Shown: one piece after another, positions 13,333 through 57,066 of the stretch
Numbering within the stretch: the stretch's first letter is position 1
Layout: each line of letters starts with the position of its first letter
From: a virus
IMG/VR virus record: IMGVR_UViG_3300037493_003528
Span: 1 to 64,000 of that record
Reading direction: 5' to 3' (one strand)
Length of the DNA: 64,000 nt
Program-made: the position numbers and the translations under genes
Notes under the pieces: model-generated
Told to the model about the DNA's origin: nothing
The model's database searches: none
The model's input: only the letters and a program-made list of their open reading frames with translations

Positions 13333-15399
13333 ATGTCTATCATCATCACAATGAAATCTTTTAAGGGTCATAAAGGTATTCCTGGCCATCAAGGAGGATC
13401 GTTAGCTAGGAAGTATGAATCCAATGTGCAACTTGGTGAAGGTACTCAAAGTACACCACCTAGAACTGGTGATGTTCCAAAACCAATATTCGAAATACAC
13501 GATGCACGTAAATTAATGAGTAACTTTTATTCTGTAGCAGTTTGTATTCGTGGTGAAAATTTAGGTCGTATAATTGCTGTTAATGCAGATTTCAATCATA
13601 GTTATATGTTACATCAGGCAGGACTAAAAACATCGATAGATGACTGGGTAAGGTTTACTGTTGCAAAAAGAACAGATGGAGGGCAAATTTTATTGGGGGA
13701 TTATTACTTTGCTGGTCAAAAAGTAGTGCAAGGAGAAGATAAGATTTCTGCAATGAATAATATTTATATGGCTTGTGATTATCTAATAGCTGCAGGATTA
13801 TCAGATGATACACCATTGGGAATTACATCCAATTTTCGTAATATGTTGGAACTGACTGTTCATAAAGAGATAGAACTGAAATCGTTTCCTAAGCACAAAG
13901 GTATTCTTGGTCATCAGGGTGGCTCATTAGCCAGAAATGCAGTACAGGAACAACCAGTAACCAATAACAATAAAAATAAATGTCAATTTCCTGGGCAACG
14001 GCTCACGTTAATGGAGCAATTGATTTACGATGATATGACAGATCTTGGAACAGACTTCAAATATTCTACATACGATTCTTCATACACGAATCCTCCACCT
14101 GGAAGTCCTGGATTTGAATTGCGATTAATGACGAAGGTTAGTAAGATTTTACAAGAAACACCTAATAACGATTTTGTGGTGCATCAACGATATATTGGCA
14201 AAGACGGTTATTGTGAGTACGTTAAAGATGATAAGGGTGCGTACATATCATTGCCTGTTTCGAAGGATGATATGCTGTTATTCAAGGAAAAGGTTCATAA
14301 ACTTGTAAGAAACAGGGGTGAAAATATAATACGGGAGTTAGGTTTACCACCCGATCTTGATACACTGGTTAGTGAACTAAAATATACAGGTGATTTTCGA
14401 TCTTATGAATTTCAAGATAAATTGCAGAAAATGGTTGATAAAACAGATTTAACTGGTTACACGAGAGATGAGATACAATATCTCATACCGTATTATTATG
14501 AATGGAAGAATAAGGAAAAGATTGGATTACATTGGGAAGATGACTATCCTGATAATGATGTTAAAAATAAGGATTTTGACCACATGTTGGGCACGGTTGG
14601 TTACACCTTTACCGATGAATATGACTTTCAAGTGAAGCATCAGATAGCTCTTGGTAACTTGGATCCCGATTTCGTTAGTTTTCATTTATTAGCTCCTAAT
14701 CTTGCACGTCCGCAAAGTTCTGCCACTGGTAAGTGGGAATTATTACCATCGGTAATGTATCATTGCGCAACCAATGCTGGAGCTATTATGGCTACACAGT
14801 TGAAATCTCGTAGGGAATTGGGAATGAGAAATGGTACAGGTTTGGGTGGGGGAGAGGATGATACAATATCAATTGGTGTAAGTGAGGAAGTTATCAAGAA
14901 TGTCGAGCGTAGCATACACGAAGCACATGCTGTTGTGACAGGTAAGATTAAGTTTGCAGATTTGCTTCATGCTATGAAAGTTGGTGCTGGAGCAAATGGT
15001 GTACCATTCGGACTAACAACTGAGCCTGCTTGGTATCAAAATATTTTGGATATGGAAAATGGAATTGTTCCTGAAGACAAACCAGGACAATTGATAGAAA
15101 AGATATGGGATTTCTATCATCTTGATTTTGTTGGATATAGGCAAGGAGCTGGTGGTTACGAGAATCCTGTGTTTTTTGGAACAGATTATAAAGCGTTAGC
15201 AAAGTTGGATCCAACAGAGTTCAAGGTTATAAAGTTATCTCCAGCTAATCCAAATGCTAAAGGTAGTAGGATGAACTCGATGACAGAATGGCGATTGATT
15301 GGTGGTGACACTGTAAAAATGGATGAAGTTATTGATTACTACGGACCTGAAGATTATGATGAGATTTTAGGTTATTATCAGAAAGGAGTGCCTAGATGA
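13333..15399 (+). CDS. leader-tagged polyprotein: two leader copies, unknown domain(s) and C-terminal ADP-ribosyltransferase-like domain
   Basis: Leader at the N-terminus and again at 13867-13935 (IELKSFPKHKGILGHQGGSLAR). C-terminal MYHCATNAGAIMATQLKSR...TISIG...EWRL resembles ART-fold H/S/E motifs. Confidence 0.6.
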   Translation: MSIIITMKSFKGHKGIPGHQGGSLARKYESNVQLGEGTQSTPPRTGDVPKPIFEIHDARKLMSNFYSVAVCIRGENLGRIIAVNADFNHSYMLHQAGLKTSIDDWVRFTVAKRTDGGQILLGDYYFAGQKVVQGEDKISAMNNIYMACDYLIAAGLSDDTPLGITSNFRNMLELTVHKEIELKSFPKHKGILGHQGGSLARNAVQEQPVTNNNKNKCQFPGQRLTLMEQLIYDDMTDLGTDFKYSTYDSSYTNPPPGSPGFELRLMTKVSKILQETPNNDFVVHQRYIGKDGYCEYVKDDKGAYISLPVSKDDMLLFKEKVHKLVRNRGENIIRELGLPPDLDTLVSELKYTGDFRSYEFQDKLQKMVDKTDLTGYTRDEIQYLIPYYYEWKNKEKIGLHWEDDYPDNDVKNKDFDHMLGTVGYTFTDEYDFQVKHQIALGNLDPDFVSFHLLAPNLARPQSSATGKWELLPSVMYHCATNAGAIMATQLKSRRELGMRNGTGLGGGEDDTISIGVSEEVIKNVERSIHEAHAVVTGKIKFADLLHAMKVGAGANGVPFGLTTEPAWYQNILDMENGIVPEDKPGQLIEKIWDFYHLDFVGYRQGAGGYENPVFFGTDYKALAKLDPTEFKVIKLSPANPNAKGSRMNSMTEWRLIGGDTVKMDEVIDYYGPEDYDEILGYYQKGVPR

Positions 15400-15815
15400 C
15401 TGAAGAAAATGTAGCATTAACTGGCGTGCCGTTGAGTATTGATGCATCTGTCATAAGTTCAGGTGGTATTCAGGAAAGAGTTTTCGTTAATAGGATGCAG
15501 ATTTTAGCATTCTTTTCTCGTACGCAAGTTCGGGAAAGTGGTTTGATTGTTGATAGATTGGAAGGGATAGCCATCAGAACTCACATACCTACTAAGTGGG
15601 TAGGTAACGGTGGTGATATGTCTTTTCGCAATTTTATCATAAATTACATGTTCGATTTCAATAAGGAAAAGTTTGATGAAAATAATGAAAAACATTGGGA
15701 TTTTATATTAAAGATATTCCAACCTGGATTTACACGTTTCTGGATACAGGTATTTTCAGAGAAAGAATTTTCAGTGCTTATGGAACTAAATCCAGATTGG
15801 GATCTTAAGGAATGA
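15396..15815 (+). CDS. hypothetical protein without leader (possible partner/immunity protein)
   Basis: ATGA-coupled to the preceding effector; aromatic-rich. Confidence 0.55.
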   Translation: MTEENVALTGVPLSIDASVISSGGIQERVFVNRMQILAFFSRTQVRESGLIVDRLEGIAIRTHIPTKWVGNGGDMSFRNFIINYMFDFNKEKFDENNEKHWDFILKIFQPGFTRFWIQVFSEKEFSVLMELNPDWDLKE

Positions 15816-16603
15816 AACAACCAATTGTCATAGTTTATAAAGGTGGTAAAGGTAGTGGATTCAAGAACCATCTTAGTAAACCAGGACACTATGGTGGCTC
15901 ATTACCACGTGGTGAGATGCAAGAACAGAAATCTGAACGGTTTATTGTTCCAAAAGAGGCGTGGTATATTGATGAAAGTAGACCAAATTGTAAAAGAGTT
16001 TATGTTCAGGCATGGGTTGATTCGTTGTCAGAAAGAGGTTGGGATGTTCGTGATATCATAGAAAAATCGTTACATGCTGGTGTATTACCACAAGCTTATT
16101 CAAGGGAATATGTCCCTGATTGGGGTGAAGTGACTGAAAAGGAATACACTGTTTGGAGAGCTGGTAAGTTGGATAAGAAGGATGAAGGTATATATTTTGG
16201 TCCAGATATGGAAGAGATAAGAATGTATTCAACAAATAATGGTGCTGATATAAAAAGTTACACAATAAAATTACATAATCCAAAAACATATCTTGATAAG
16301 AATGAAGCCATGTTGGATTTGTTTCCGAATTGTGTATCTGAGGCAAAGATAGAAAAGAAGCGTCGAGAGTATGGTTATGATTGGAATGCAACTGTTAAGT
16401 TGATGCCACATTTGTGGGAAATTCAAGATGCAGGTTATCGTGGTGCAGATGTTGTTAAAGTTAATAGGCAATTGGATGCTCGTATTGCTAAAGCACTAAA
16501 TAAGCGTGGTTATGATTCAATGGTTTTACTTAAACCTGAACCGCCATGTTCACGAGAAATAATGTTGATTGATCCAATAAAGAATTTGGTGCAAAATGAT
16601 TGA
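15812..16603 (+). CDS. leader-tagged ART-PolyVal-like ADP-ribosyltransferase
   Basis: Variant leader IVIVYKGGKGSGFKNHLSKPGHYGGSLPR. VWRAG...GIYFG...Y.IKLHNP...GYDSMV...EIMLIDP matches the polyvalent-protein ART pattern. Confidence 0.6.
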   Translation: MKQPIVIVYKGGKGSGFKNHLSKPGHYGGSLPRGEMQEQKSERFIVPKEAWYIDESRPNCKRVYVQAWVDSLSERGWDVRDIIEKSLHAGVLPQAYSREYVPDWGEVTEKEYTVWRAGKLDKKDEGIYFGPDMEEIRMYSTNNGADIKSYTIKLHNPKTYLDKNEAMLDLFPNCVSEAKIEKKRREYGYDWNATVKLMPHLWEIQDAGYRGADVVKVNRQLDARIAKALNKRGYDSMVLLKPEPPCSREIMLIDPIKNLVQND

Positions 16604-17615
16604 TGTTATTGATAACATAAAAAGCATGTTGGTAAATCCAGATAATGCTGAATTTATTGAGCGTATATTATTATCAGGAATGAAATTTAATGGTAATAAA
16701 CCTATCACTATTACCATGAAATCTTTTAAGGGTCATAAAGGAATTCCTGGTCATCAAGGCGGTTCATTAGCTAGAAACGAAACTTGGCAATCAGGTAAGA
16801 CTGAAGCGCAAAAGATAAAAATATTAACCAATGGAAAATTAACTCCTGATTCTAATGTTAGATACATTAAGGGAATCACAAAAAGCATGATTTGTAATGT
16901 GGCTGGTAATGGACGAGTTATTATCAAAGGTGATGATGTTTTGTCCAGTGTTCTTAATCCAATTGCGATGGTTGCCAATGAAAAGTTGGCATATGATGTT
17001 TCTGTGGCTATGGGATTTGATAGATTGGTTCCAACAACAGTTGTCAGAATGTTGGATGAGGATATCGTGGAAGATATTAGTCAAAGTACAGGTACTCATC
17101 GTAATCCAGTTGTGTATAGGAAGGGTAACGTTGTTTCTATGCAGGAATGGATAGAAAATTCAATTGCACCATATGAGATTTACCATCAACAATATTCAGG
17201 TACATTACCAATTCCTGGTGCGTATGCAGAAGGTGAGTTTATCAAGATGGGTGTATTGGATTCTATAATAGGTAATGGTGATAGACATTCTAATAATTCT
17301 GTATTTTTGGTTGATCAAAAGACTGGTGAGATAACAAATGTTTATGCCATAGATCATAACTTGATAAGAGGTTTGTATAATAATACTATTGATGCTGTTA
17401 GAAGAGCAAAGCAAAGTTATTCAGAATCAAGTGGTAAATTTAATTTTGATTTTGTTATACCAAATTCTATGTGTGATACATTAAGAGAAAAGTGCAGCAC
17501 TGATGGTGAAATATATAATTTATTCAAATCTGATGGTGATACAAGATATATGATGGATAGGGTTGATGATTTGTTGCGAATATATGGTGATGGGAAATTT
17601 CTCGATAGAATCTGA
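16596..17615 (+). CDS. leader-tagged PI3/PI4-kinase / HipA-like kinase
   Basis: Leader at 16704-16775. NEKLAYDVS, LVPTTVVR, SMQEW, LDSIIGNGDRHSNN, AIDHNL. Confidence 0.75.
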   Translation: MIDVIDNIKSMLVNPDNAEFIERILLSGMKFNGNKPITITMKSFKGHKGIPGHQGGSLARNETWQSGKTEAQKIKILTNGKLTPDSNVRYIKGITKSMICNVAGNGRVIIKGDDVLSSVLNPIAMVANEKLAYDVSVAMGFDRLVPTTVVRMLDEDIVEDISQSTGTHRNPVVYRKGNVVSMQEWIENSIAPYEIYHQQYSGTLPIPGAYAEGEFIKMGVLDSIIGNGDRHSNNSVFLVDQKTGEITNVYAIDHNLIRGLYNNTIDAVRRAKQSYSESSGKFNFDFVIPNSMCDTLREKCSTDGEIYNLFKSDGDTRYMMDRVDDLLRIYGDGKFLDRI

Positions 17616-17669: not shown

Positions 17670-18251
17670 ATGAATAAGTTGATACTGAGAAGGAAATATT
17701 TTAGAGGGCACAAGGGTCGTCCAGGATTTGAAGGTGGCTCAGTGCCACGCAGTGCTGGTAAGGTCATACCAGATTTTAAGGTTACTGGTAGAGATGAAAA
17801 TGGTATGAGTGCTGGTGATAGACACAGATTTGAATTGACGAAATACTTGCGTCAGGTGAAGAAGGTTGGATCCCGCAGTAGTACCGAATCAGTTGTTTGT
17901 GATTATGGTCATTTCTCTTTTCCTAAAGGTGAACTACCAGCTAAATATAAACTTGGTAAATCGAAAGAATGTTTTAGGAATGCTATGCGATTGGCAGAGC
18001 AGCACCCTGAATTAACTTATGTAGAGGGATTCGCATTCCCTGATTTTATGGATATTCCTATACATCATGCGTGGTGTGTTGATAAGAATAATTTAGTGAT
18101 AGATAATACGTGGCCTAAGATAGGAACAGTTTACAAGGGTATACGATTTGATATTGATTTTATCTACAAAGTTCAAATGGAAACTGAGACGTATGGTGTT
18201 ATTGATTTTAGTAGTAAGTTTTTTCGTGATGCATATCCACCAAAGGTATAA
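17670..18251 (+). CDS. leader-tagged papain/transglutaminase-like Cys-His-Asp enzyme
   Basis: Leader LILRRKYFRGHKGRPGFEGGSVPR; KECFRNA, YVEGFA, HHAWCVD, VIDNTW. Confidence 0.7.
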   Translation: MNKLILRRKYFRGHKGRPGFEGGSVPRSAGKVIPDFKVTGRDENGMSAGDRHRFELTKYLRQVKKVGSRSSTESVVCDYGHFSFPKGELPAKYKLGKSKECFRNAMRLAEQHPELTYVEGFAFPDFMDIPIHHAWCVDKNNLVIDNTWPKIGTVYKGIRFDIDFIYKVQMETETYGVIDFSSKFFRDAYPPKV

Positions 18252-18260: not shown

Positions 18261-18392
18261 ATGAAACTAATTGTAAAAACAAAATCGTTTCCTGGACATA
18301 AGGGTATTATAGGTCATCAAGGCGGTTCGTTACCTAAGAATTTAGAAATGGAGGTAAGAAATGAAAATAACTTTAAGAACAAAATCTTTTAA
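18261..18392 (+). CDS. leader-only mini-ORF (43 aa, not in ORF track)
   Basis: Hand translation: MKLIVKTKSFPGHKGIIGHQGGSLPKNLEMEVRNENNFKNKIF*. Confidence 0.55.
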   Translation: MKLIVKTKSFPGHKGIIGHQGGSLPKNLEMEVRNENNFKNKIF

Positions 18393-18762
18393 GGGTCATA
18401 AAGGAATTCCTGGTCATCGGGGTGGATCGTTATCACGAGCGGATGCTGGTAGCACTGATAAATTATTAAGAGATGAACAGCATGAATTAGAGCGTAGTTT
18501 TGACTACTTGAGAACAAATACAAATAGTTGGGCAGTACGAGATAACATAAAAACATTATCAAACAAATATCTTGATACAAAACTTTATACTATCGATAAG
18601 AAGACTGCACTAAAGAACGTTGCCAAATTACAGAAAATTATGAAGTTGGATATGATGGATAACGAGGATTTTGTAATTTTAGATATAGCATCAGAGTTTG
18701 ATGGTAATGGTTATGGTGAGTATCCTGACTACATGAATGAAGGGGAAGAGGACAACAATTGA
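18361..18762 (+). CDS. leader-tagged protein, unknown helical/acidic cargo
   Basis: MKITLRTKSFKGHKGIPGHRGGSLSR; RBS GGAGGT. Confidence 0.75.
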   Translation: MKITLRTKSFKGHKGIPGHRGGSLSRADAGSTDKLLRDEQHELERSFDYLRTNTNSWAVRDNIKTLSNKYLDTKLYTIDKKTALKNVAKLQKIMKLDMMDNEDFVILDIASEFDGNGYGEYPDYMNEGEEDNN

Positions 18763-19322
18763 AACTAGTAATAAGAACTAAATCGTTTCCTGACCATAAA
18801 GGTATTCCTGGACATCAAGGAGGAAGTCTTCCAAAAATTCAAGGAATGCAAAGAAATCTTCCGTTCCCGGAGATAACTGTTGAGCAGGATCAAAATCATT
18901 TTACTGTTCCATGTGAAGGGACAGAGGACATTGATTACAGCAATGCTCAGGATTGGATATGGCACGAGAATGGTTCAAGAATGGTACAGCCAAATTGGTT
19001 CCATGAAATAAAGAGACCGACACCTGCTGAAATGGAACAGATTAAGACAATCGTTAAAGCAGAGCAGGGAAGTTTGGATCAGGAGCATAATACCAATTCT
19101 GCATATGATTCCTATGAATATGTAAGACTTTGGAAGGGTAAGGATTACATAGCTCAGAGACGTATAGTGGTTAGCAAGGATTATCCAACCGACGTAATAG
19201 CGTGGACTGATGGATTATTCTGCAGATGTCCTTATTGTAAGGGACCTACGCTCGAGCCTGATTGGGAGAAAGTGTATAATGCATGCGACAGTTGTGGTAT
19301 TGAATACATTCTTAAGGAATGA
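18759..19322 (+). CDS. leader-tagged protein with C-terminal Zn ribbon
   Basis: TTG start; KLVIRTKSFPDHKGIPGHQGGSLPK; CPYC...CDSC. Confidence 0.75.
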   Translation: MKLVIRTKSFPDHKGIPGHQGGSLPKIQGMQRNLPFPEITVEQDQNHFTVPCEGTEDIDYSNAQDWIWHENGSRMVQPNWFHEIKRPTPAEMEQIKTIVKAEQGSLDQEHNTNSAYDSYEYVRLWKGKDYIAQRRIVVSKDYPTDVIAWTDGLFCRCPYCKGPTLEPDWEKVYNACDSCGIEYILKE

Positions 19323-19480: not shown

Positions 19481-21007
19481 ATGCTACAAACAACAGAAAT
19501 TAGCAGCATAGGAGAATTGGTAAAAAGCATATCTATACAGGTAAGTGGAACTAGTCAGTTTAGTAAGTTCCAAAGAATGTATAAGAATGATCGAATAGCA
19601 TTCGTGCATGATATTATGCCTAGATTAGGAAAAAGCATAACACCTTATCAGGAGGAGATATTAGGTTACTTTGATGAGGGAGAAAAGAGAGTAGCTGTAA
19701 GAGGACCACACGGTTTGGGAAAGACTTTCTTAGCGAGTATTATCGTGCATCATGGTTTACTTACCAGTGAGGAGGATTGCAAGATTCCCTGTACAGCTAG
19801 TGCATTTAGGCAGTTGGAAAAGTATTTGTTTCCTGAGATCAAAAAGAGCTCAACGTTTATAGCGTGGCCTGCTGTAGGAAGGCAACCTTATACGAGTTCT
19901 GGTGGAGGAAATTGTGAAATGCATCAAATGTCCATCAAGCTATCTGATGGCATGGTAGAAGCGTTTGCTGTAGCAAGCGATAACTATGCGTATATCGAGG
20001 GTGCTCATGCACGACGACTAATATATGTGTTTGATGAGGCAAAGACTATTCCAGATGGCATGTGGGATGCTGCTGAAGGAGCATTCTCCACAGAAGGCAT
20101 AGCATCAGACAACAAAGAAGACTACGCAAATGATAGTGAATGCTATGCATTTGCTATCAGCACTCCTGGTGCTCCATCAGGACGATTCTATGATATACAT
20201 ATGCATAAGGAAGGCTATGAGGACTGGAGAGTAAGGCACGTTACTCTCGATGAAGCTATTAATGCTGGTCGCATAGGAAAAGACTGGGCAGAGCGTAGAC
20301 TTAAGCAGTGGGGAGAAACGTCTAGTACGTACCAGAACAGAGTCCTAGGAGAGTTTGCAGACATGTCAGAGGAAGGAGTTATACCTTTATCTCATATAAA
20401 CATGGCAGTGGCTCGCTGGAAGGCTTGGGACGTGTCTGGACGACCTGTTTTAAAGGGTAGGAGAAGTATAGGAGTAGACGTGGCTAGGATGGGTGAAGAC
20501 AACACCGTACTGGCGTGCAGGGAGGCATCCACCGTCACAAACGTCCATACTTTTACAAAACTTCCGACCACGGCAGTTGCAGGACATGTCAAGCATTATT
20601 CGTCAGGTAGAATTATTAATATAGAAATGGATGGTGGACTTGGTGCAGCTGTATATGATATGCTCCACGAAGAAGGTGTGCCAATGCTTAAACCTATAAT
20701 AGTAAATGGCAAGACGCTTAAGCGAGATAAGTCTGGAGAGTTAAAGTTTGCTAACGTGCGTGCTGCTATGTGGTGGAATATGCGTGAACTACTGGATCCA
20801 GTAAATGGAGAAGGTGTTATGCTTCCACCTATTATTAAGTTGATTGGAGACCTGTCCGCACCGAAGTGGGAGATAAAGAAAGATGCTACTGTGTTCTTGG
20901 AGGATAAGAAATCCATACATGAGAGAATTGGTAGATCTACGGATTATGGAGATGCTGTGTGTCTGGCATTTTGGGAAAGCGGTGGCGGTGGAGGTGTGGT
21001 ATTTTAG
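19481..21007 (+). CDS. terL: terminase large subunit
   Basis: ITPYQ, Walker A RGPHGLGKT, Walker B YVFDEA, ISTP, nuclease GVDVARMGEDNT, STDYGDA. Confidence 0.93.
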   Translation: MLQTTEISSIGELVKSISIQVSGTSQFSKFQRMYKNDRIAFVHDIMPRLGKSITPYQEEILGYFDEGEKRVAVRGPHGLGKTFLASIIVHHGLLTSEEDCKIPCTASAFRQLEKYLFPEIKKSSTFIAWPAVGRQPYTSSGGGNCEMHQMSIKLSDGMVEAFAVASDNYAYIEGAHARRLIYVFDEAKTIPDGMWDAAEGAFSTEGIASDNKEDYANDSECYAFAISTPGAPSGRFYDIHMHKEGYEDWRVRHVTLDEAINAGRIGKDWAERRLKQWGETSSTYQNRVLGEFADMSEEGVIPLSHINMAVARWKAWDVSGRPVLKGRRSIGVDVARMGEDNTVLACREASTVTNVHTFTKLPTTAVAGHVKHYSSGRIINIEMDGGLGAAVYDMLHEEGVPMLKPIIVNGKTLKRDKSGELKFANVRAAMWWNMRELLDPVNGEGVMLPPIIKLIGDLSAPKWEIKKDATVFLEDKKSIHERIGRSTDYGDAVCLAFWESGGGGGVVF

Positions 21008-21037: not shown

Positions 21038-21481
21038 ATGAAGCTAATATTCAAATCGTTTCCTAATCCTGGACATGAAGGAATCCCTGGACATCAAGGT
21101 GGGAGCCTTCCACGTGGTGAATCATCAAATAAGAAGACATTTAGGCACGGAACAAGTATTGAAAGTGCCGATAAAATTAGAACTGAGGGAATACGTAGAA
21201 ATAGTGCTAGTATAGGTGACAGAGCATCTTCAGTTTATTTTATGCAGGACAAAAGTGCTATTCGTGATTACGTCACAGACAAATACAACGAAAGTGATGA
21301 AGGATTTGCGATTGTTGAATTTGATGTACCAGAGGAATTTACTGACTCCATTTTGGAGGATGAAGAAGAAGGTGACTCCTTCAGAATGGAGAAGGATGTT
21401 CCTACAGAATGGATAAGAAATATTGAATACTATGATGCAAAAGGAAAATTCTCGAAGAGAATTGACATCACGAAAGTTTAG
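21038..21481 (+). CDS. leader-tagged ADP-ribosyltransferase-fold protein (H-G-T type, Tpt1/PARP-like)
   Basis: Leader MKLIFKSFPNPGHEGIPGHQGGSLPR; FRHGTS...IRTEGI...VYF...IVEFDVP...DVPTEWI. Confidence 0.65.
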   Translation: MKLIFKSFPNPGHEGIPGHQGGSLPRGESSNKKTFRHGTSIESADKIRTEGIRRNSASIGDRASSVYFMQDKSAIRDYVTDKYNESDEGFAIVEFDVPEEFTDSILEDEEEGDSFRMEKDVPTEWIRNIEYYDAKGKFSKRIDITKV

Positions 21482-24106: not shown

Positions 24107-24108
24107 AA

Positions 24109-24282
24109 ATGGCACTAACATCTAAGGAAATAGAACAAATTGCTAAGGACGAAATGAGGGGTGTTAAACCGACAATTAAGGGTAAGGATGCCGATGAATT
24201 TAGGAAAAGGTTTGCTGTTGACATGGCATTAGCTAAGGAGAAGGGTTGGATAATAGAATTACCATTTGAGATACCTGAATAG
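24109..24282 (+). CDS. 57-aa protein (not in ORF track), candidate zeta antitoxin
   Basis: RBS AAGGAG; MALTSKEIEQIAKDEMRG...GWIIELPFEIPE*. Confidence 0.55.
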   Translation: MALTSKEIEQIAKDEMRGVKPTIKGKDADEFRKRFAVDMALAKEKGWIIELPFEIPE

Positions 24283-27580: not shown

Positions 27581-27583
27581 CAA

Positions 27584-32104: not shown

Positions 32105-33471
<1,367 letters not shown>

Positions 33472-33475
<4 letters not shown>

Positions 33476-34362: not shown

Positions 34363-34374
34363 GAGGTATATATA

Positions 34375-34731: not shown

Positions 34732-36264
<1,533 letters not shown>

Positions 36265-47880: not shown

Positions 47881-49299
47881 ATGCCACGTTTTGATAATCG
47901 TATAAAAGAAGTTGATAATGTAGAACTAACGTTGTCACAGGTTAATTCCATTGCACGTATGGCTGATGCAATTGGTGAGGATAAGAATGGTTGGTCTATA
48001 GCAATTTCTAGTTTTAAGAAATCACATAAAATTTCTGGTGGTAAGTGGGTAAAGGATAATATATTAGACAAGGAAATTTCTTCTGCTTATGTCACTAAGC
48101 AGGATAATGGAACTTATTGGATAACTGCCGTATCAACTGCTGCAATAAAAGATCGTGAGGGAGAAACTTTTACAACTGCTGCAATTGATTATGATATGAA
48201 TGTTGCTAAGGAAACTGGAGTTTATCCACAGTTTAGGGTGTTCCATTCTGGTGGTCTTGGAATAGGGCAGGTATCTAAGATGTCCAGAGTTGGTATTTTT
48301 GCTATTGATGAGGGATCGTCTTACAATGATGCCTTTTCTTTGGATGTGTGTGAGAAGATGTTGTCCCGCAATGCAGATGGAAAGTGGCGTGTATCCAGAG
48401 GTTTTAGAGTTCTTGAGGCTTCAGGAATATGTCCAGATTGCGGAGAGGATTTGTTAATCCGTACCAAACACATGGCGATAGGTTTTAGATGTCCCACGTG
48501 TAATTCTATTCAATTGGGATCTAAGGGATCTTTGGGTAACCTTAAATTTCTGAAGGCAAAAACATTTGACATTACGGTAACAGATGTACCTGCTGTGCCG
48601 TGGACAGGTGTTAGTGCATTTCCAATTGATTTATCATATATGGAGGTTGGAATGAATAAAAAAGAATTGCGAACACGGTTACTGAAAGCTGGTTTGGATG
48701 AGTTGAAAGTAGATGAGCGGTTGGAAGGTATCTCGGAAGATACTCTTAAAGAGTTTGACAACATTCCTGAAGCTATACTTCTGAAGGAATTTTCAGCTGA
48801 TGCTGAAGAGTCTGAGACTACCATTGATTCGGATAATGTTTTTACGCTGGATGAAAGTGTCCTAAAGGAATTTTCTAAGATCGTTGCTAAACAGGTATCT
48901 GAAGTCGTTTCTATGCAATTGGATGGTCTGACTGTGGAAGTGGAAGAAGATGAATTGAAGGAAAATTCTAAGATCGTTGAATTGCAAGGTGCCATTGATG
49001 AATTGAAGGAGTTGGTTGAGTTACTAATTGGTAAGAAAACCACAGTTAGTGATGAAGTTGAAACTCCTCGTAACGGTTTGCGTGTCCTGCGAGCTAAGGC
49101 ATTTCCTCCGAAGAAGGATGGTAAGAATAAGTTTCCTCCTGATGAGGAATCCGACGAAGATTCATCTGACGACGAAGATGCCGATAATGCACCAGTGAAG
49201 AAGGTTGCTAAGGAATATGGCGACGATGTTTTGATTGTTGGTGCTAATGGAAAACGAATGAAGAGTATGACAGATTTTGTCACAAGTGGAGGTGACTAA
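47881..49299 (+). CDS. prohead protease (HK97-type) / scaffold fusion with N-terminal ChaB-like domain
   Basis: DREGE, FRVFH, VSRGF, DITVTDVPAVPWT; acidic coiled-coil C-terminus; precedes capsid gene. Confidence 0.75.
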   Translation: MPRFDNRIKEVDNVELTLSQVNSIARMADAIGEDKNGWSIAISSFKKSHKISGGKWVKDNILDKEISSAYVTKQDNGTYWITAVSTAAIKDREGETFTTAAIDYDMNVAKETGVYPQFRVFHSGGLGIGQVSKMSRVGIFAIDEGSSYNDAFSLDVCEKMLSRNADGKWRVSRGFRVLEASGICPDCGEDLLIRTKHMAIGFRCPTCNSIQLGSKGSLGNLKFLKAKTFDITVTDVPAVPWTGVSAFPIDLSYMEVGMNKKELRTRLLKAGLDELKVDERLEGISEDTLKEFDNIPEAILLKEFSADAEESETTIDSDNVFTLDESVLKEFSKIVAKQVSEVVSMQLDGLTVEVEEDELKENSKIVELQGAIDELKELVELLIGKKTTVSDEVETPRNGLRVLRAKAFPPKKDGKNKFPPDEESDEDSSDDEDADNAPVKKVAKEYGDDVLIVGANGKRMKSMTDFVTSGGD

Positions 49300-50660
49300 T
49301 GCCTAATGGATTGATAACTAATGTATTTGATCGTCCTGGTTTGGTTCGTCTGAAGGAGCAGGAACTTGGGAGTCCTTCTACGACCAATATTTATGGTCGG
49401 TATTCCATTTTCAATGAGTGTGCTGCAGGAGACATCTTTGGTCTTCAGGTTCAGACTCATGGTCTGTTGAATTGGATCGGGTGGCGTCCCAATAAATATT
49501 ATCGTCGGCGTGTTGATTTTGTGACATGGATGGGTCCAGAAGGCACTGCTGCTGGACAAGCTGGTAATGGTGCTGGAGCTCCTTGCTCAGATCCTACCGT
49601 TGGTTTTGAATATGGTCAGGGTGGTTACGAGATGGTTCACAAATCCTGGTACCACTTTATTGGTGATCCTTTGGATCCTCATACTGTTGTTCAGGAACGT
49701 TGTGAAACATCCCCACGTTACCGTCTTAATGGTCAGCTCATCAGTGATGATGTTGAATGGCAGATGAACGGTATTATGACTGCCATGCAGCAGAATATGC
49801 GTCGTGACTTGGTCCATGGCTCACATGGTAATGCATATGAAATGGACGGTTTGGAATCTATTATTAAGACTGGTTATGTTGATGATTTCAATCAGCCTAT
49901 GCCTATGGTGGATTCAATCTTGGTAGCTTGGAATGATAATCTGGACGGTCTCATAAATGGCAATGGTAATTTCTTTGACTATATGGATGAAGTTGTCAAT
50001 GAGATTGAGTATCGTGCTACAGCGTTTGGCAGCATATCAGAAACTGATATGGTCCTGGTTACCAGTCGGTTTATGGCTACTTGCCTTTTGGATGCGTATG
50101 CTTGTTACACTACCTGCGGTGTTACCGATACAGGCGATGTGTCAGATCAAGCTTTGCGAGCACAGCAACGTCAATTGCGGATGCAGCTTAATGCTGGTCC
50201 TTTGTATGACGGTGCGTCAGCAGTTGGATTTATTCAGTTGAAATCTGGTAGACGGTTACCGATTATGGTGGATGACACCATGGACATTGGTAAAGCGTTG
50301 TACGGCTGGAATACTGATATCTACCTGCTAACTCGTAAGGTTGGTTCTCTCGACGTGCTTTACGGAGAATTTTTGGATATGCGTGTGTACGAGAATCGCA
50401 TCAAGAAATTTGCTCCTAAATTCACTGCTCAGAGTGATGCAGCTGGACGATTTGTAACTAAGGCGAAAGAAGATAATTGGTGTTTCACCCTCATGCTTGG
50501 TACAAGTCCAGAAGTTTATATTTCTGCTCCTTGGGCACAGGCTCGCATCTCCGGAGTTTCTTGTGCTAAGAAACGTCGTCCTGTGAATGGTGATCCTTAC
50601 CAGATCGAATATCTTCCTGGCGAGGGTGTTCTCTACAAAGCAAAGACTTCCCTATACTAA
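49299..50660 (+). CDS. major capsid protein
   Basis: Follows protease/scaffold, 453 aa; DLVHGS..YEMDGLESII; strong RBS GGAGGTG; downstream hairpin. Confidence 0.8.
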   Translation: MPNGLITNVFDRPGLVRLKEQELGSPSTTNIYGRYSIFNECAAGDIFGLQVQTHGLLNWIGWRPNKYYRRRVDFVTWMGPEGTAAGQAGNGAGAPCSDPTVGFEYGQGGYEMVHKSWYHFIGDPLDPHTVVQERCETSPRYRLNGQLISDDVEWQMNGIMTAMQQNMRRDLVHGSHGNAYEMDGLESIIKTGYVDDFNQPMPMVDSILVAWNDNLDGLINGNGNFFDYMDEVVNEIEYRATAFGSISETDMVLVTSRFMATCLLDAYACYTTCGVTDTGDVSDQALRAQQRQLRMQLNAGPLYDGASAVGFIQLKSGRRLPIMVDDTMDIGKALYGWNTDIYLLTRKVGSLDVLYGEFLDMRVYENRIKKFAPKFTAQSDAAGRFVTKAKEDNWCFTLMLGTSPEVYISAPWAQARISGVSCAKKRRPVNGDPYQIEYLPGEGVLYKAKTSLY

Positions 50661-50729: not shown

Positions 50730-50744
50730 GTGTGAGAGGTGAAT

Positions 50745-52484
50745 ATGGATGATGTTCTTGTCTCTGTTGTTACTGGAACGTATAATCGCATACGATATCT
50801 GAAGGCAATGGTAACAACAGTGCGTAGTTCTATAGGTGTGGGGTTGCCATATGAAATAGTTTTGGTTGATGGTGGAAGTACTGATGGTACACAGGCTTGG
50901 TGTAAAACACAAGAAGATATTGTTTTTATTGAACAGAATAAATTGGTTGGTGCTGTGAAGGCATTTAGTGCTGGATTTGCAAAAGCAAAGGGTAAGTATG
51001 TTATTATTGCGAATGATGATATTGTTTTTATGGATGATGCTATTATTGCAGCAGTTGCCTTTATGGAGATTCACATAGATGTTGGTATTGGGTGTTTTTG
51101 TCAGGATCGTGGAGAGCAGGCTTTTCATGTTGAGTTCATGTCAGCAGTTTTGAATGGACAGTCAATTAGCGTTCCTTATGGACAGGTTTGTATAGTTCCT
51201 AGGGAATTGGGTGATAAGGTTGGATGGTGGGGTAATTATCTTCACACATATGCTGGAGATAATGAGTTATCGTGTAATATGTTGGAATTGGGATACAGGG
51301 TAGAGCCTGTAGAACCATGTGCGTGCGTGCATGATTATGTTGTAAAGGATGATCTTAGAGTTGCAAATATGGGATCCATTGACAATCATCCAGCAACAGG
51401 TCATCCAGATTCTAATGCTTGGGTGAAGAAGTGGACTCGTAATGGAAAGCGTGGTCCTATTATTGGTTCAGTTGGGAAGTATAGAACAGAGTCTGTTGTA
51501 TCACGAGTTTTATATGCACCAATATATGATCCATCAATTAGAACGGATTTGTTGCGTACCACAAAGTATGGTTTACGTGAGGCACTTGCCAGAGAATTTC
51601 ATGTTGTAGAATTAGATTATTATGATAATCCATTGGAGATATTGGATGTAGCTGAGCGGTGGAAGCCAGATATATTTTTATTGCAGTTGCAGGATTCAAA
51701 AGTCTTTAATCTAAATCATCTAAAATATCTTATGTCATACAACAGAAATTCCTTATTCATTAGTTGGAATGGTGATTTTATTTCTGAAAATATATTGGAT
51801 TCGCAATATATGGCTATGATGCAATTGATGCATTTACCATTATTTGTTACCACGTTTATGGAAGAGCAATATAAAGCTGTTGGTATAGATTTCAGGTTTT
51901 GGGAAATTGGTTACGAGGATATAAGAAATCCAGATGACGGTATTCCCACGATGAATACACCTAAGCACGATGTTTTGTTTCTCGGCAATGCTTATTATCC
52001 AGATCGTGTAGAACTTGGTAATGTGCTTAGGTCGCTTAAAGGCATAAATGTTGGTATATATGGAAATTGGAAAAGAATAAAAGCAAATGGTATGAACATC
52101 TACGATTTTGCAGATGGTATGAGGTTATACAGGAATTGCAAGATTGCAGTATCTGATTGCAGAAAGGCAAGAGGGTATGTATCAAATAGGTTGTTTCAGG
52201 AATTGTATGCTGGAGCGTTTGTGCTGCAAAAAAGAATTGAGGGGATGGAAGAACTGATTGGTTTGCAGGATGGAGTTCATCTTGTTATTTGGGATACATT
52301 TGATGACCTGAAGGAAAAGATTGTTTATTGGTTGGATCGTGATGAGGAAAGAAAGAAGATTGCAGAGGCAGGTCAATTATATGTTTCTGTAAATCATTCT
52401 TTTGATGTTAGAGTGCAGGAGTTGGAAGTTATGATGGCACAGCAGAAATTTGTATTTCATACAAAGGGTATACTTGGATTATGA
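50745..52484 (+). CDS. two-domain glycosyltransferase: GT2 plus CgeB/YkvP-like GT-B
   Basis: VSVVTGTYNR, VDGGSTDG, ANDD; DVLFLG, SNRLFQ..GAFVL, IAEAGQ...HSFDVR. Confidence 0.88.
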   Translation: MDDVLVSVVTGTYNRIRYLKAMVTTVRSSIGVGLPYEIVLVDGGSTDGTQAWCKTQEDIVFIEQNKLVGAVKAFSAGFAKAKGKYVIIANDDIVFMDDAIIAAVAFMEIHIDVGIGCFCQDRGEQAFHVEFMSAVLNGQSISVPYGQVCIVPRELGDKVGWWGNYLHTYAGDNELSCNMLELGYRVEPVEPCACVHDYVVKDDLRVANMGSIDNHPATGHPDSNAWVKKWTRNGKRGPIIGSVGKYRTESVVSRVLYAPIYDPSIRTDLLRTTKYGLREALAREFHVVELDYYDNPLEILDVAERWKPDIFLLQLQDSKVFNLNHLKYLMSYNRNSLFISWNGDFISENILDSQYMAMMQLMHLPLFVTTFMEEQYKAVGIDFRFWEIGYEDIRNPDDGIPTMNTPKHDVLFLGNAYYPDRVELGNVLRSLKGINVGIYGNWKRIKANGMNIYDFADGMRLYRNCKIAVSDCRKARGYVSNRLFQELYAGAFVLQKRIEGMEELIGLQDGVHLVIWDTFDDLKEKIVYWLDRDEERKKIAEAGQLYVSVNHSFDVRVQELEVMMAQQKFVFHTKGILGL

Positions 52485-53764
52485 AAGATGTTACAATTAT
52501 TATACCATCATATGTAGTTGATGACAAAACATATGGTTGGTTGGTGGAATCAGTTGCATCTGCACTAGATCAGATGGTTCATGTAATTGTCTATGATGAT
52601 GGTAGTCCTTATAAAGTTGTAAATAAACTCATTAAGGAATTTAGTAGATCAGACCTGTATGTGTTTGGATCAGATGAAAATCATGGTGTTTCATATGCTA
52701 GGAATAGGGCAACTGAGAAGGTTGAGACGACTCTGTTTATTCCTTTGGATTGTGATGATAAGTTTGGAGAGGATGCCATTGAGAAATTGCATTTGATATG
52801 GGATGGTGTACCAGTTTATTCAGATCTATCTAAATTTGGTAATGAGCATATAATTCATTTCAGGTTATTGGATTTTGATTGTAAAATGTTAAAGGAGAAA
52901 TTGGGCATCGCACCAGTTTCTGTTTTACATTCCATAGAACAGTGGAAAACGTTGGGTGGTTGGAATGAGGATATAAATTTGTATGAGGATGCTGAATATA
53001 ATGCAAGGTTGCTTGGGACATATTGTGGTAAGAATGTTCATGAGCCACTAATCATGTATAGGCAACATGATTTGCAGAGAACTAAGAAATATGATGCTAT
53101 CTCAAGAAACATCAGTAAAAATATTTTGGATATGGTTAGGAGGTATGATATGCCATGCTCATCGTGTGGTGGTGCTCGTCGGTCTCAGATGGTTAAGAAC
53201 AACTCATTTTCTTCAAGTATACCAAATGTTCTTCCTTTACAGAGTAGAATTGATAACATGCCTGGATCGCAGGGAGAACTTGTTTTGGCACATTACGTTG
53301 GTGGTGCAGGGAAAATGACACATTATTATCGTGGGGTTGTTACTAATTATCCCTATAAGGTTATGTACGATTCTCTTTTGTATGTAGATGTGAGAGATAC
53401 ATCAGAGCCAGATTCACTAAACAAGAAATCGTTTTTGTTACGAGTTAATAAGAGTGATACTTCAACAACTACCACTGCTCCAGTTGTTGAAGTATCTGCG
53501 ATAGTTCCTGCAGATGTGATTATTGATACAGCTACTGTTAAAAGAGTTTCTGTTGCATTTGTGGAGAAGGTTCCAATTGTAGATTTGGATAAGGTTGCTA
53601 TTAATGATGACATTGATTACTTGCCTGATATTGCAAATTTGTCTGTAAGAGCAATTCGTAATTTAGATATTGATGAAGAAGTAGCTAGGAAACTGTTGAA
53701 GATTGAGACGTTTGGTCTGAATAGGGAACGTGTTATTGAGTGGTTAAATAACAGGTTAAAATGA
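52481..53764 (+). CDS. GT2 glycosyltransferase fused to C-terminal putative head accessory domain
   Basis: TIIIPSY, YDDGS, GVSYARN, LDCDD, YEDAEY, YRQH; internal AGGAGGT-ATG at 53150. Confidence 0.8.
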   Translation: MKDVTIIIPSYVVDDKTYGWLVESVASALDQMVHVIVYDDGSPYKVVNKLIKEFSRSDLYVFGSDENHGVSYARNRATEKVETTLFIPLDCDDKFGEDAIEKLHLIWDGVPVYSDLSKFGNEHIIHFRLLDFDCKMLKEKLGIAPVSVLHSIEQWKTLGGWNEDINLYEDAEYNARLLGTYCGKNVHEPLIMYRQHDLQRTKKYDAISRNISKNILDMVRRYDMPCSSCGGARRSQMVKNNSFSSSIPNVLPLQSRIDNMPGSQGELVLAHYVGGAGKMTHYYRGVVTNYPYKVMYDSLLYVDVRDTSEPDSLNKKSFLLRVNKSDTSTTTTAPVVEVSAIVPADVIIDTATVKRVSVAFVEKVPIVDLDKVAINDDIDYLPDIANLSVRAIRNLDIDEEVARKLLKIETFGLNRERVIEWLNNRLK

Positions 53765-54096: not shown

Positions 54097-54100
54097 CTAT

Positions 54101-55156
54101 ATGGCTAGAATATCATACAATACATTAGCGGATGATTACCAGGAGGGGATAACTCTTGATAGGTATCAAGAGTTGATGGGATTACCACTAAATGCATTTA
54201 ATGGTTTAAACAATCCTGACGAGATAAATGATTATGTTTGTAGTACGATATGGACTCAGGGTCATCGAGATTATTTAGCAAAATATTTGGCAGCATCAGA
54301 GGAGATGCGTGAACAGGAATTGGGATTTTTCATTGCTCCAAAATATATTTCAAATGAGAGACACGTACCAAAATCATCTACAATACTTAATCGTAAATGG
54401 TTTGTGAAAATTGGTAAGAAAACTGACACGTTAATATCATCTGGTGTATCATTAGTTTTGTCAACAATATATGGTGTTTATGATCCTGTTGTTATAATTG
54501 TTCCAACAACCGTTACAGATGCAAGTGAAATCTTAGTTACTTATCCAGGTGAGAAGATTGCAATACATCCAACATATGTTTCAATTTCGGGTGGGAATGT
54601 AGAGATTCGTATTCCCAGAGGTAGACTGGTGGATCCTACTCTGAATGATGATCGTGAGGATCACCTGGATTATTTTGATGACGCAAATTTTATAACATCT
54701 GTAGACGTTTATCGTCGTTGGTATGATCCAACCTATGGTATAGAAATAGTTTCTCACATAGAAAATACTTTTACGGAAAGCATTAAGGCTGGTTTTGCAC
54801 TGGTGTTGGATAACAGAACTGCAGTTGTGGAGGTGCATCAGGCAACGTGGGTTGCTGGAGTACCTTCTCCTGATTGTGCTGCATCATGCACTGATTTCAA
54901 GTTCATGAGGATTAATTATTTGTCAGGTAGGCAGAGTTCTATAAAAGTGGAACTTGAGACGGCTCGTCTAGCTCATACACTTATGCCATATTCACCTTGT
55001 GCTTGTGAGCCTGTTCAGTTATATTGGTTGGATGATTGCAATTCTAAGGATTATGATTTAACACCTTATGGAAATAAATCTGGTGCTATAAATGCGTGGA
55101 TAGCGGATTCCAGATCTAAGATAGGATTTGGTACTGCTATTGGAGGAATCAAATGA
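54101..55156 (+). CDS. head-tail adaptor/neck-like structural protein
   Basis: Position after capsid; beta-rich. Confidence 0.5.
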   Translation: MARISYNTLADDYQEGITLDRYQELMGLPLNAFNGLNNPDEINDYVCSTIWTQGHRDYLAKYLAASEEMREQELGFFIAPKYISNERHVPKSSTILNRKWFVKIGKKTDTLISSGVSLVLSTIYGVYDPVVIIVPTTVTDASEILVTYPGEKIAIHPTYVSISGGNVEIRIPRGRLVDPTLNDDREDHLDYFDDANFITSVDVYRRWYDPTYGIEIVSHIENTFTESIKAGFALVLDNRTAVVEVHQATWVAGVPSPDCAASCTDFKFMRINYLSGRQSSIKVELETARLAHTLMPYSPCACEPVQLYWLDDCNSKDYDLTPYGNKSGAINAWIADSRSKIGFGTAIGGIK

Positions 55157-55809
55157 AGTTTATCATAAGAACAAAATCGTTTCCTGATCATAAGGGTATT
55201 CCTGGTCATCAAGGTGGCTCTCTTTCAAGAAATGGCAGTGATGGGAAGGATGAAGATCCTGTAAAGATGTATGAGCAGGGTGCTAAAGTTGGAGATATTG
55301 TAGATCATTTTAGTAAATCGCCACATGCCGAAAATCTTGCAAGGCAGGTTGCCGAAGGAAAGCAAAGGTTCAATGATGATAAAGCGAAGCGTAATCAAGA
55401 GCTAGTTGCAGAGCAACAGGCAAGACGATCGCAAGAATTAAAGATTACAGGAAGTGAGATTTCAGCATATGATAGGATGGTTGCAGATGAAAAGAAGTGG
55501 CGGGAAGATAATCCAGCTCTAGACACAACTAAACTTCCTGAGTATGCAGCATGGAAGAAATTCCAGGATTCAGTCGGTAAATATTATTCATATAACATAT
55601 ATGTGTCTCCAAATTCTAAGACAGTTGAGATTTCATTCAAGAGTAAGAGTATAAGTATCACTAAACAGCGTGCGCAGATTCAGAATATGATAACTAGCAA
55701 CAATCTTCCTGGAAGTGAATTTTATGGTTCTGGTTACGAGGTAGAGCATGATCCAGATGCTATAGAAGGTACTCCAGCATATACTCATACATTCAGGTAT
55801 GGATATTGA
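55153..55809 (+). CDS. leader-tagged protein, unknown cargo, inside head-tail module
   Basis: MKFIIRTKSFPDHKGIPGHQGGSLSR. Confidence 0.75.
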   Translation: MKFIIRTKSFPDHKGIPGHQGGSLSRNGSDGKDEDPVKMYEQGAKVGDIVDHFSKSPHAENLARQVAEGKQRFNDDKAKRNQELVAEQQARRSQELKITGSEISAYDRMVADEKKWREDNPALDTTKLPEYAAWKKFQDSVGKYYSYNIYVSPNSKTVEISFKSKSISITKQRAQIQNMITSNNLPGSEFYGSGYEVEHDPDAIEGTPAYTHTFRYGY

Positions 55810-55817
55810 GGTAAAAT

Positions 55818-56393
55818 TTGGCAAAACTATTCTCTGTAAATGTTATACGTAGACCAAAAGCAGCAAGACGGGTTGCAGAAGAGGTTAGGAATGAGGTGCG
55901 TACAGCTTATAAGAATTTAGCAGAGGATTGTATAAACAAATTGGATTTCAATGTTCTTGGTTGGGAAAAAGCACCAAAATTTGCTAGTAAGATATCAGTT
56001 ACGGAAAAGGAATGGCAACTGAGTATTGGTTATGATCCTAAGACAGATGGAGGAATGCACTATTTGTGGGCAGACAAAGGAACTGGAGAGCGTGGTGGTG
56101 GGGATCCTTATGAGATTGTTCCAAAGAATAAGAAGGGTCATCTTGTGTTTACGTATCCTCCACACATCCCCAAAACTTTTCCAATTCCAGCTGTTCCTGG
56201 TATAATTGTGCATGGTCTTCCCAGGATTAATATTCGTAAGAAGGTAACAGCTCCTGGTATCTATCCTAGGAACTTCTCGAAGAATCTTACCGACTTTCTG
56301 AAGAAAAGGGAGCAGGTAGGTGGTTTGCGCAGTGTTACGGAAGCAGCAATAAAAAGAGCGTTTAGGACGTTGGGAATATATGATAGAAAATAA
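55818..56393 (+). CDS. neck/tail-completion (HK97 gp10-like) protein
   Basis: Basic; WADKGTG...YEIVPK...KVTAPGIYPRNF. Confidence 0.55.
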   Translation: MAKLFSVNVIRRPKAARRVAEEVRNEVRTAYKNLAEDCINKLDFNVLGWEKAPKFASKISVTEKEWQLSIGYDPKTDGGMHYLWADKGTGERGGGDPYEIVPKNKKGHLVFTYPPHIPKTFPIPAVPGIIVHGLPRINIRKKVTAPGIYPRNFSKNLTDFLKKREQVGGLRSVTEAAIKRAFRTLGIYDRK

Positions 56394-56415
56394 TAATAAT
56401 AAAAAGAGGTGAGAA

Positions 56416-57066
56416 ATGAAAATAATTTTAAGAACAAAATCGTTCCCAGATCCTGGCCATGAGGGAAGACCAGGAAAGCGTGGTGGCTCTCTTCCGAGAA
56501 AGGGTGGTGGGGAGAAGAAGGCTGATGAGAAGATTAATGAGGAAGTTGATTTATCAAAGCCACATTGGAGAGACATAAATGGTGTGACGCATCAAGGTGA
56601 GGAAGAAGATCCTGAGCCATCATATTATTATGGGAAGAGACAGGAGAGAAAGTTTGGAACAGGTCTCAGTTCTAATAATCCAACTTTACTTCAGGATGAA
56701 GGAACTAATGATACAATGTTTAGTACTAGAAGAAGCGATTTGAAGGTAGCTGCAGAAACTGGTGAGAAGATTAATAATATAGGATCGTATAAGAATGTTT
56801 TTCGTGCGCTGGAAGCGTTGGCAGGTGATAATGGTGGTGCTGTTAATACAGAGTATGAGATTCCAAATGGGAAGGTAAAAGCATTTGCCATCGCTGACAA
56901 AGTCCTTAGTAAATTGGATAGAGATGATTTTATGCAGGTTGTTGCAGGTGATTATGACAAGACACAGAAAATATTGAATGGATTTGGACGTGATGGTAGG
57001 ACAACTGATAAATTACTTGAGGCACTATTTCAAGGTAATTTGAGTGATTCTATAAATTATGATTAG
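56416..57066 (+). CDS. leader-tagged protein, unknown cargo
   Basis: MKIILRTKSFPDPGHEGRPGKRGGSLPR; RBS GAGGTG. Confidence 0.75.
   Translation: MKIILRTKSFPDPGHEGRPGKRGGSLPRKGGGEKKADEKINEEVDLSKPHWRDINGVTHQGEEEDPEPSYYYGKRQERKFGTGLSSNNPTLLQDEGTNDTMFSTRRSDLKVAAETGEKINNIGSYKNVFRALEALAGDNGGAVNTEYEIPNGKVKAFAIADKVLSKLDRDDFMQVVAGDYDKTQKILNGFGRDGRTTDKLLEALFQGNLSDSINYD

Follow-up and report, generated by a model that had tools for sequence, protein, structure and literature searches.

Phages are thought to inject host-disarming enzymes in the first seconds of infection, and how such proteins are selected for the capsid and released inside is known only for T4 and a few giant phages. The class of proteins itself has been described, comprising polyvalent proteins, MuF toxins and the T4 internal proteins with their capsid-targeting sequence. 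Here we describe a peptide of about 26 residues, referred to below as the header, that precedes unrelated effector modules in an uncultured phage (IMG/VR record IMGVR_UViG_3300037493_003528; the window is the whole stretch of 64,000 nucleotides, positions 1 to 64,000 of that record). The complete genome of this phage comprises 78,810 nt, carries direct terminal repeats and is rated 100% complete. Judging from the sequences, the header most likely marks proteins that are carried in the capsid and cut free there.

Polyvalent proteins are proposed by Iyer et al. 2017 (PMC5512222) to be processed into separate units, and virion proteomics of phage phi24B detects its 2811-aa polyvalent protein (bioRxiv 10.64898/2026.04.10.717836). 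Their repertoire (ART-PolyVal, where ART stands for ADP-ribosyltransferase, zeta-like kinase, zincin peptidase, 2H, PBECR, NUDIX, SNF2 and LPD1; PMC5512222) is shared by the header-bearing proteins, and in the window the zeta-type match is strong, those to ART-PolyVal and to the kinase are weak, and cargos are homologous to modules within such proteins. The late or virion gene setting is also found here, as the header array flanks terL and two header genes lie in the head-tail module, and delivery with the DNA followed by processing into units is predicted for both. Polyvalent proteins hold 2-15 domains per polypeptide, whereas 12 of the 13 header-bearing open reading frames (ORFs) of this phage hold at most one module and the remaining one (13333-15399) holds two; the multi-domain feature appears in two relatives (G004 and G005) and in many database matches. 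A term search of PMC5512222 found no mention of the header.

In T4, a short N-terminal leader (the capsid-targeting sequence, removed by gp21) is found on unrelated head-internal proteins, including an ADP-ribosyltransferase (IPI-III, Alt; PMC3012670, PMC9958956). The header resembles it in position, with 12 of the 14 copies at or near an N-terminus and 69 N-terminal clusters elsewhere; the header proteins would be head-internal as well, and a protease of the gp21 fold is predicted to be common to T4 and this phage. The two sequences are unrelated, however: the header has no L/I-x-E cut site, is about twice as long and Gly/Pro-rich, and is found within polyproteins as well and in phages of both bacterial and archaeal hosts. 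In the MuF polymorphic toxins, variable toxin domains are borne on a conserved (pro)phage head-morphogenesis protein (PMC5576092, PMC3482391), whereas the toxins of this phage are unfused to a head protein and no fusion of PF04233 to a toxin is present; term searches of PMC5576092 and PMC3482391 found no mention of a junction motif. Letter-string literature searches recovered the header motif in no relevant paper, which is not proof of its being undescribed.

Several other short peptides invite comparison. VENN in CdiA and DPxGL in Rhs proteins are short conserved peptides directly before a hypervariable toxin domain, where they form a cleavage or recombination boundary; encapsulin cargo-loading peptides, which are short, rich in Gly, Ser and Leu and usually C-terminal, address unrelated enzymes into an HK97-fold shell; and double-glycine bacteriocin leaders are N-terminal peptides with a final GG that a papain-like peptidase cleaves off. 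A C39 transporter is not present in this phage.

The header peptide and its occurrence

Six-frame regular-expression scans of the complete genome located 14 header copies in 13 ORFs, all on the + strand and starting at 13333, 13867, 15812, 16704, 17670, 18261, 18361, 18759, 21038, 21581, 22425, 23150, 55153 and 56416; each of the 14 copies reported in the initial annotation was thereby recovered at its coordinate, and zero further copies were found in the rest of the genome. For twelve of them the position is the beginning of an ORF, or close to it, and a plausible ribosome-binding site is present; of the other two, that at 13867 is internal and that at 18261 heads a cargo-less ORF of 43 aa. 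A short hydrophobic strand ending in Lys is followed by (S/T)F-x-x-H-x-G-(I/R)-P-G-x-x-G-G-S-(L/V)-P-(R/K), and the consensus for the window reads M-K-(3 hydrophobic)-x-(hydrophobic)-K-S-F-P-x-H-x-G-I/R-P-G-H-x-G-G-S-L-P-R. When the 14 copies are aligned, F, H, G and GGS are invariant, the K and one further G are kept in at least 90% of the copies, and no Glu is conserved. Three copies deserve separate mention: the one at 15812 represents a dialect of its own, with K-S-F swapped for K-GG-x-GSG-F..H; the one at 16704 lies 36 residues past the first possible start codon, and its gene start is ambiguous; and the ORF of the copy at 21581 opens at a GTG at 21503, the ATG at 21581 yielding a canonical N-terminal header. 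Downstream of the header follow a polar low-complexity linker and then domains that are unrelated between genes. In the AlphaFold2 model of the protein encoded at 21038, the header (residues 1-30) is predicted to be disordered and unpacked on the folded cargo.

The codon differences among the headers comprise 535 synonymous and 306 non-synonymous changes, with Ser encoded by TCN and AGY, Gly by all four of its codons, and Arg by CGN and AGR. Because synonymous codons vary freely and third positions at identical header residues agree in only 0.46 of comparisons, purifying selection targets the header peptide and not the DNA, and the header is not a DNA-level repeat. Three pairs of headers are identical at the DNA level over 35-37 nt, and some recent copying or gene conversion between headers has therefore taken place.

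A profile built from the 14 headers and searched against 1.84 billion representative proteins retrieved 233 clusters at E<=1e-3, and the position of the header was classified in the best 150 of these 233. In 69 of the 150 the header is N-terminal only (residues 1-30 of proteins of ~100-350 aa, a few of them longer), 63 contain 2-7 headers each in proteins of roughly 160-2600 aa (mostly >400 aa), and 18 have a single internal header. In the N-terminal class the motif lies at an almost constant distance from the Met, with the conserved His at index 12 in 44 of 80 instances. The initial annotation had named leaders occurring mainly on non-phage proteins as one outcome that would speak against its proposal; every match proved to be from a phage, a prophage or a metagenome, and the members of the ten top metagenomic clusters that were looked up are all metagenome-sourced.

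Between the headers of the polyproteins, the modules Phage_Mu_F, Portal_Mu, ART-PolyVal, LPD1, InPase, Zeta_toxin, 2H and an M90-like zincin were identified, and further GNAT, PARP, ADPrib_exo_Tox (an exotoxin-type ART) and a CCA-adding enzyme; PF04233 is present in some of the header-bearing polyproteins (P0003, P0030 and L058). In the long proteins, and also in close relatives of the phage, K-S-F is often swapped for K-GG-x-GSG-(F/H/N)-x. The long proteins are polyvalent proteins as Iyer et al. 2017 use the term. Cargos of the window have homologues exactly between two headers: the 22425 cargo corresponds to residues 972-1156 of P0114 (headers at 884 and 1167), the zincin of 21581 to residues 287-419 of P0137 (headers at 252 and 468), and the first module of the 13333 protein (module A) to residues 267-372 of P0001 (headers at 231 and 399) and, again between two headers, to a part of P0011. 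This arrangement indicates that the header is a module boundary and belongs to the module following it.

Other searches were less productive. With tblastn, a whole header protein and the 33-aa header gave nothing useful against 50,697 phage records, where the low-complexity filter probably masked the motif and left the cultured phages in effect unsearched, and two polyproteins gave cargo-domain matches only against the phage records. No matching model in Pfam, NCBIfam or PHROG covers the header, and in the PDB it occurs in no solved chain, the sole match being a His-tag linker.

For prokaryote genomes, the search with the 14-header alignment resulted in 167 pattern matches, 0 of which were confirmed by tblastn. 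A DNA pattern for the Gly-rich dialect matched 77 stretches (~60 clear instances) in one-genome-per-species prokaryote assemblies, the usual reading in these prophages being D-GG-P-GSGN-(F/W)-GH-x-GRPG-xx-GGS. The sources include Clostridia (Lachnospiraceae and Oscillospiraceae), Alpha-, Beta- and Gammaproteobacteria, Acidobacteriota, and methanogenic and other archaea. A domain scan covered 18 ORFs of these stretches. Eleven of the 18 open with a portal domain, and the header stands further on, before or between C-terminal modules (e.g., Portal_Mu, header and a PBECR3 nuclease in L027; portal, header, NUDIX and Ntox50 in L086). One contains MuF, three are 1650-2100 aa long with the header at the start and an SNF2-type helicase at the end, and one from a cultured Oxalobacter has the order header, PBECR2, header, ART-PolyVal. 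Cultured strains whose prophages bear the header include Oxalobacter paraformigenes HOxBLS (L083) and Clostridiales bacterium CCNA10 (L034, with the order portal, NUDIX, header, tail domain).

Contigs related to this phage (terminase 57-71% or capsid protein 60-74% identical) have the same layout. Five near-complete relatives contain 14, 9, 6, 3 and 2 header copies, and in those with 3 and 2 the copies lie inside proteins of >800 to 1200 aa. Several relatives have their header genes between the portal/post-portal genes and the protease/capsid genes, and two of them (L008 and L012) encode a protein of 676-680 aa with a header at its beginning and the post-portal protein as its C-terminal part. 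Each genome shows its own dialect of the header (the 10 residues upstream of the His are 0.52 identical within genomes and 0.27 between them), as is expected if there is one shared recognition partner per phage or if gene conversion occurs.

Proposed loading and release, and competing readings

The initial annotation had interpreted the leader as a modular address tag that loads enzymes into the phage head for injection with the DNA. The tie to the head is borne out, as the header elsewhere joins effectors to portal, MuF and post-portal proteins, and so is its modularity, since it fronts unrelated enzymes; the peptide as an address fared less well, about half of the headers being internal. Internal headers are found also directly behind portal or MuF anchors, and they suit loading no better than they suit a site of release or processing. 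A processing site is suggested because portal-fused effectors have to be cut before they can exit the capsid and the header is the only conserved element at the junction. Loose genes need no cut site, which argues that recognition of the header does something more for stand-alone proteins; by analogy with the T4 capsid-targeting sequence, the simplest such extra role would be entry into the procapsid. With moderate confidence we propose that the header is read by the head-maturation machinery and serves release and, for loose genes, loading.

According to this proposal, the phage would possess a polyvalent protein that has been taken apart into 11 header-plus-cargo genes, one two-module protein and one header-only remnant. 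The enzyme modules would reach the interior of the procapsid, where the header would be the element recognised by the head-maturation machinery. In anchored or multi-module proteins, a cut at the header would free each enzyme to exit with the DNA, and in stand-alone proteins recognition of the header would be the ticket into the procapsid, the header possibly being trimmed afterwards. The best candidate for the cutting enzyme is the protein encoded at 47881-49299 on the + strand, with the zincin behind the header at 21581 and the transglutaminase-like peptidase of 17670 as alternatives. A cut might fall after the conserved Lys or between GG and S. Assemblins cleave before a Ser that follows a small residue, which is no more than a lead to the second site; the invariant K19 of the capsid protein, in an otherwise variable N-terminal arm, is likewise no more than a lead.

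The product of 47881-49299 (472 aa, with 134 homologues) is detected by no Pfam or PHROG model. We built an AlphaFold2 model from 47 sequences and matched the structure by VIA-align. It predicts a prohead protease with an assemblin/T4 gp21 fold, a Zn ribbon and an acidic, coiled, scaffold-like tail; the protease domain comprises residues ~67-250, its best structural match is T4 gp21 (5jbl_A; Z 9.6, rmsd 3.0 over 132 residues), and the next 37 matches are herpesvirus proteases (assemblins). H122, S85, S153 and S172 are invariant in the 47 homologues and are candidates for the catalytic residues. Because the gp21-like domain is followed by the acidic coiled C-terminal tail, the model identifies the protein as a putative protease-scaffold fusion. 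Co-folding of this protein with the header scored 0.00 in two runs without controls, which speaks neither for nor against binding. A small N-terminal domain (weak ChaB match, Z 3.4) is fused to the protease, the zinc ribbon has four Cys and is inserted after the protease core, and the acidic tail ends in a conserved S-M-T-(D/E)-F helix.

Several observations weigh against recognition by the head-maturation machinery. The presence of header-bearing proteins in the virion is itself deduced from their sequences and contexts, and a processing site alone fails to explain the 69 N-terminal clusters, in which an obvious need for a cut is absent. The proteins of L008 and L012 are already anchored by their post-portal part and do not need their N-terminal header as an address. 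In this phage, none of the capsid, scaffold and portal proteins contains the full motif, and the prohead protease, if it cuts those, therefore recognises something shorter; these head proteins show only a loose likeness of the type hydrophobic-x-K (K19 of the major capsid protein is invariant), and the K-S-M-T near the scaffold C-terminus is not conserved. The header array at 13-24 kb lies directly behind replication genes, and a zincin or papain-like domain was not found in most header proteins. A comparison by hhalign of the post-portal family with a MuF-bearing protein left MuF homology unsupported, and PF04233 was not detectable in a six-frame search of the genome.

Among the alternatives, a pure address tag would bind a component of the procapsid interior (the scaffold tail, the inner face of the capsid, the portal or the post-portal protein) and would never be cut. 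The N-terminal clusters of small proteins, with their strictly N-terminal header and fixed Met distance, would agree with such a tag, as would the genome-specific dialect, the modelled disorder of a header free of its cargo, and the analogy with the T4 capsid-targeting sequence and the encapsulin cargo-loading peptides. Internal copies would then have to be ready-made tagged cassettes that became fused, or a source of added avidity, but headers are retained right behind portal and MuF anchors that should themselves be enough for placement in the head, toxins fused to the portal would stay tethered without a cut, and there is one header per module and not per protein. We consider this explanation unlikely.

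The header might also be purely a junction, i.e., a cleavage or linker element of polyproteins that persists on loose genes, without a function of its own there, as a leftover of fission and a homology patch for the swapping of cassettes. The near-random third positions (0.46), together with residues invariant in all 14 copies, indicate purifying selection in stand-alone genes too, and across distant phages N-terminal headers form a class equal in size to that of internal ones; neither is what a leftover should show, and we regard a pure junction as distinctly doubtful in spite of the exact identities of 35-37 nt between headers of unrelated cassettes, the header-only remnant at 18261, the relatives that carry the same modules fused or split, and the parallel with the toxin demarcation motifs VENN (CdiA) and DPxGL (Rhs).

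A signal acting after delivery, which would aid threading through the tail channel, refolding or docking to a host factor and of which each module would need its own copy, is very improbable: it agrees with one header per module regardless of the anchor, with an extended Pro/Gly-rich peptide and with very different hosts including archaea (which would suit a phage-internal or very general partner), but a host-factor motif is not expected to vary in dialect among close relatives, and the release of portal-fused modules would be left unexplained. Two further candidates were dropped, namely a likeness to the start of ribosomal protein L27 with the extension that Prp cleaves, a sequence mimicked by head proteins of phage 80-alpha (the registers mismatch and no Prp is encoded), and a leader of the type found in ribosomally synthesized and post-translationally modified peptides or in secretion (the cargos are enzyme domains of 100-490 aa, the header does not represent a signal peptide, and all contexts are virion genes).

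Recognition of the header by the head-maturation machinery may be extended to the view that the header is a portable, near-universal handle of tailed bacterial and archaeal viruses, sufficient for loading and release and co-evolving with the protease. We put this forward only tentatively and think it rather less than probable; if it holds, phages could keep their arsenal freely as a polyprotein, as portal or MuF fusions, or as loose genes. One conserved peptide before every effector module, whether loose, in a polyprotein or fused to a portal, is in any case a testable handle, and a search for the header allows candidate injected effectors, many of them without a known fold, to be listed computationally. 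If the header is sufficient, it would offer a route for loading phage particles with proteins of choice. With its modules split into separate genes, this phage amounts to a natural experiment, in which each cargo can be studied singly.

Header genes and cargos of the phage

The header genes described in this section lie on the + strand, as do terL, the 191-aa gene and, in the following section, the genes of the probable portal, the post-portal protein and the probable major capsid protein. At the beginning of the array, a two-module polyprotein of 688 aa (13333-15399) is composed of header, module A, header and module B, and its header copies, assigned by regular expression and alignment, occupy 13333-13425 at the N-terminus and 13867-13950 between the two modules; module B is similar to the C-terminal regions of P0019 and P0114. 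The header gene at 15812-16603, of the K-GG-x-GSG dialect, encodes a weakly ART-PolyVal-like cargo (Pfam E 2e-4, below the cut-off), and that at 16596-17615 (header at 16704-16790) a weakly PI3/PI4-kinase-like cargo (Pfam E 1.9e-5, below the cut-off) that resembles residues 115-287 of P0003. The cargo of 17670-18251 has transglutaminase-like Cys, His and Asp motifs, which are also kept in a relative (L014:5835-7121). The header-only ORF of 43 aa at 18261-18392, either a remnant or a cargo-less header peptide, overlaps the start of the next header gene (18361-18762), whose 107-aa cargo belongs to no known family; the gene at 18759-19322 begins with TTG and encodes a cargo without a family that has a Cys-rich C-terminal end.

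The terminase gene terL (19481-21007; phrog_2 E 1e-35; 45% identity to Streptomyces phage terminases) lies within the array and is followed by four further header genes. The cargo of the first (21038-21481) is modelled by AlphaFold2 as a confident domain, predicted with Foldseek to adopt an ADP-ribosyltransferase fold; the best matches are TreX, an ART toxin of the Rhs type, and Tpt1/KptA (prob 1.00, E 2.6e-4, TM by target 0.65-0.67), and an H-G-T motif is conserved. The gene at 21581-22441 encodes an HExxH zincin-like cargo, that at 22425-23153 a recurrent cargo domain to which no function was assigned, and that at 23150-24106 a zeta-toxin-type P-loop kinase (Pfam Zeta_toxin E 7.8e-23; phrog_16619 E 1.4e-38, the latter a 'minor head protein' PHROG with members of 1440 aa). 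A 57-aa ORF (24109-24282) lies directly behind this last gene and might encode an antidote-like partner.

The cargo assignments made in the initial annotation from the sequence alone are supported to differing degrees. The zeta-toxin kinase is confirmed by its Pfam match, the proposed Cys-His-Asp papain/transglutaminase fold and the HEXXH zincin are supported by the motifs shared with L014 and by the homologue in P0137, respectively. Of the ART-like cargos, that of 21038 is supported by its predicted fold, module B of 13333 is a tentative candidate, and the evidence for 15812 stays below the Pfam threshold; the same is true of the PI3/4K/HipA-like kinase proposed for 16596, which is reflected in a weak PI3/PI4-kinase-like match.

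Two more header genes are placed within the head-tail module (55153-55809, with a cargo without relatives, and 56416-57066). Both slots are conserved in position in the relatives and their cargos are not. A gene of 191 aa without a header (55818-56393) neighbours header genes in relatives. Its homologue adjoins the header genes even after their move into the portal-capsid interval (L008:6467-7039), and its product might act together with the header proteins or belong to the neck.

Head genes, relatives and other features

A probable portal is encoded at 45216-47177, assigned by position and size, with no family match. It is followed by a post-portal minor head protein in the MuF position with a Cys4 C-terminus (47164-47832). 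In this family of 222-aa proteins four Cys are invariant and the C-terminal I-G-G-(Y/F/I) is almost so; in three of its members (P0291, P0292 and P0294) a 2H phosphoesterase domain, not preceded by a header, forms the N-terminal part. The portal, the post-portal protein and the protease retrieved nothing when their sequences were searched against the PDB, and a six-frame search of the whole genome gave no match to Pfam MuF, Peptidase_S78 or Peptidase_Prp. The probable major capsid protein (49299-50660; weak phrog_212 match; 60-74% identical in 12 related contigs) begins with an arm of 20-60 residues that is variable except for a single invariant Lys (K19), next to which stands a Glu; the capsid protein may be cut here during maturation. 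Two family-2 glycosyltransferase genes (50739-53764) separate the capsid gene from the genes of the head-tail connector, and relatives keep them in this position, which makes glycosylation of the virion or the DNA possible.

The terminases of two relatives are longer than the 508 aa found here (L001:5251-7620, 789 aa; L003:4992-7208, 738 aa) and match in two separate blocks, a pattern that an intein or some other inserted element would produce. Further inteins are present in P0012 (a portal), L058 (a MuF protein) and L077 (a helicase). The contig of one relative was binned in a metagenome-assembled genome of Candidatus Izemoplasmatales, which is weak evidence on the host.

The sequence CAAGTTTAGTA (at most 1 mismatch) occurs in 9 copies on the + strand, compared to 1.75 expected, at 1164, 5815, 11835, 17644, 21473, 25545, 42142, 43872 and 50719. 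Nearly all copies are just upstream of gene starts, in the replication, header-array and structural regions, and the sequence may serve as a promoter of the phage or mark boundaries in some other way. Collagen-like runs of G-x-T/G-P-T triplets are present in several ORFs of the tail-fibre region (27330-27596, 32105-35896), and the G+C content is raised to 0.44-0.45 across 28-34 kb.

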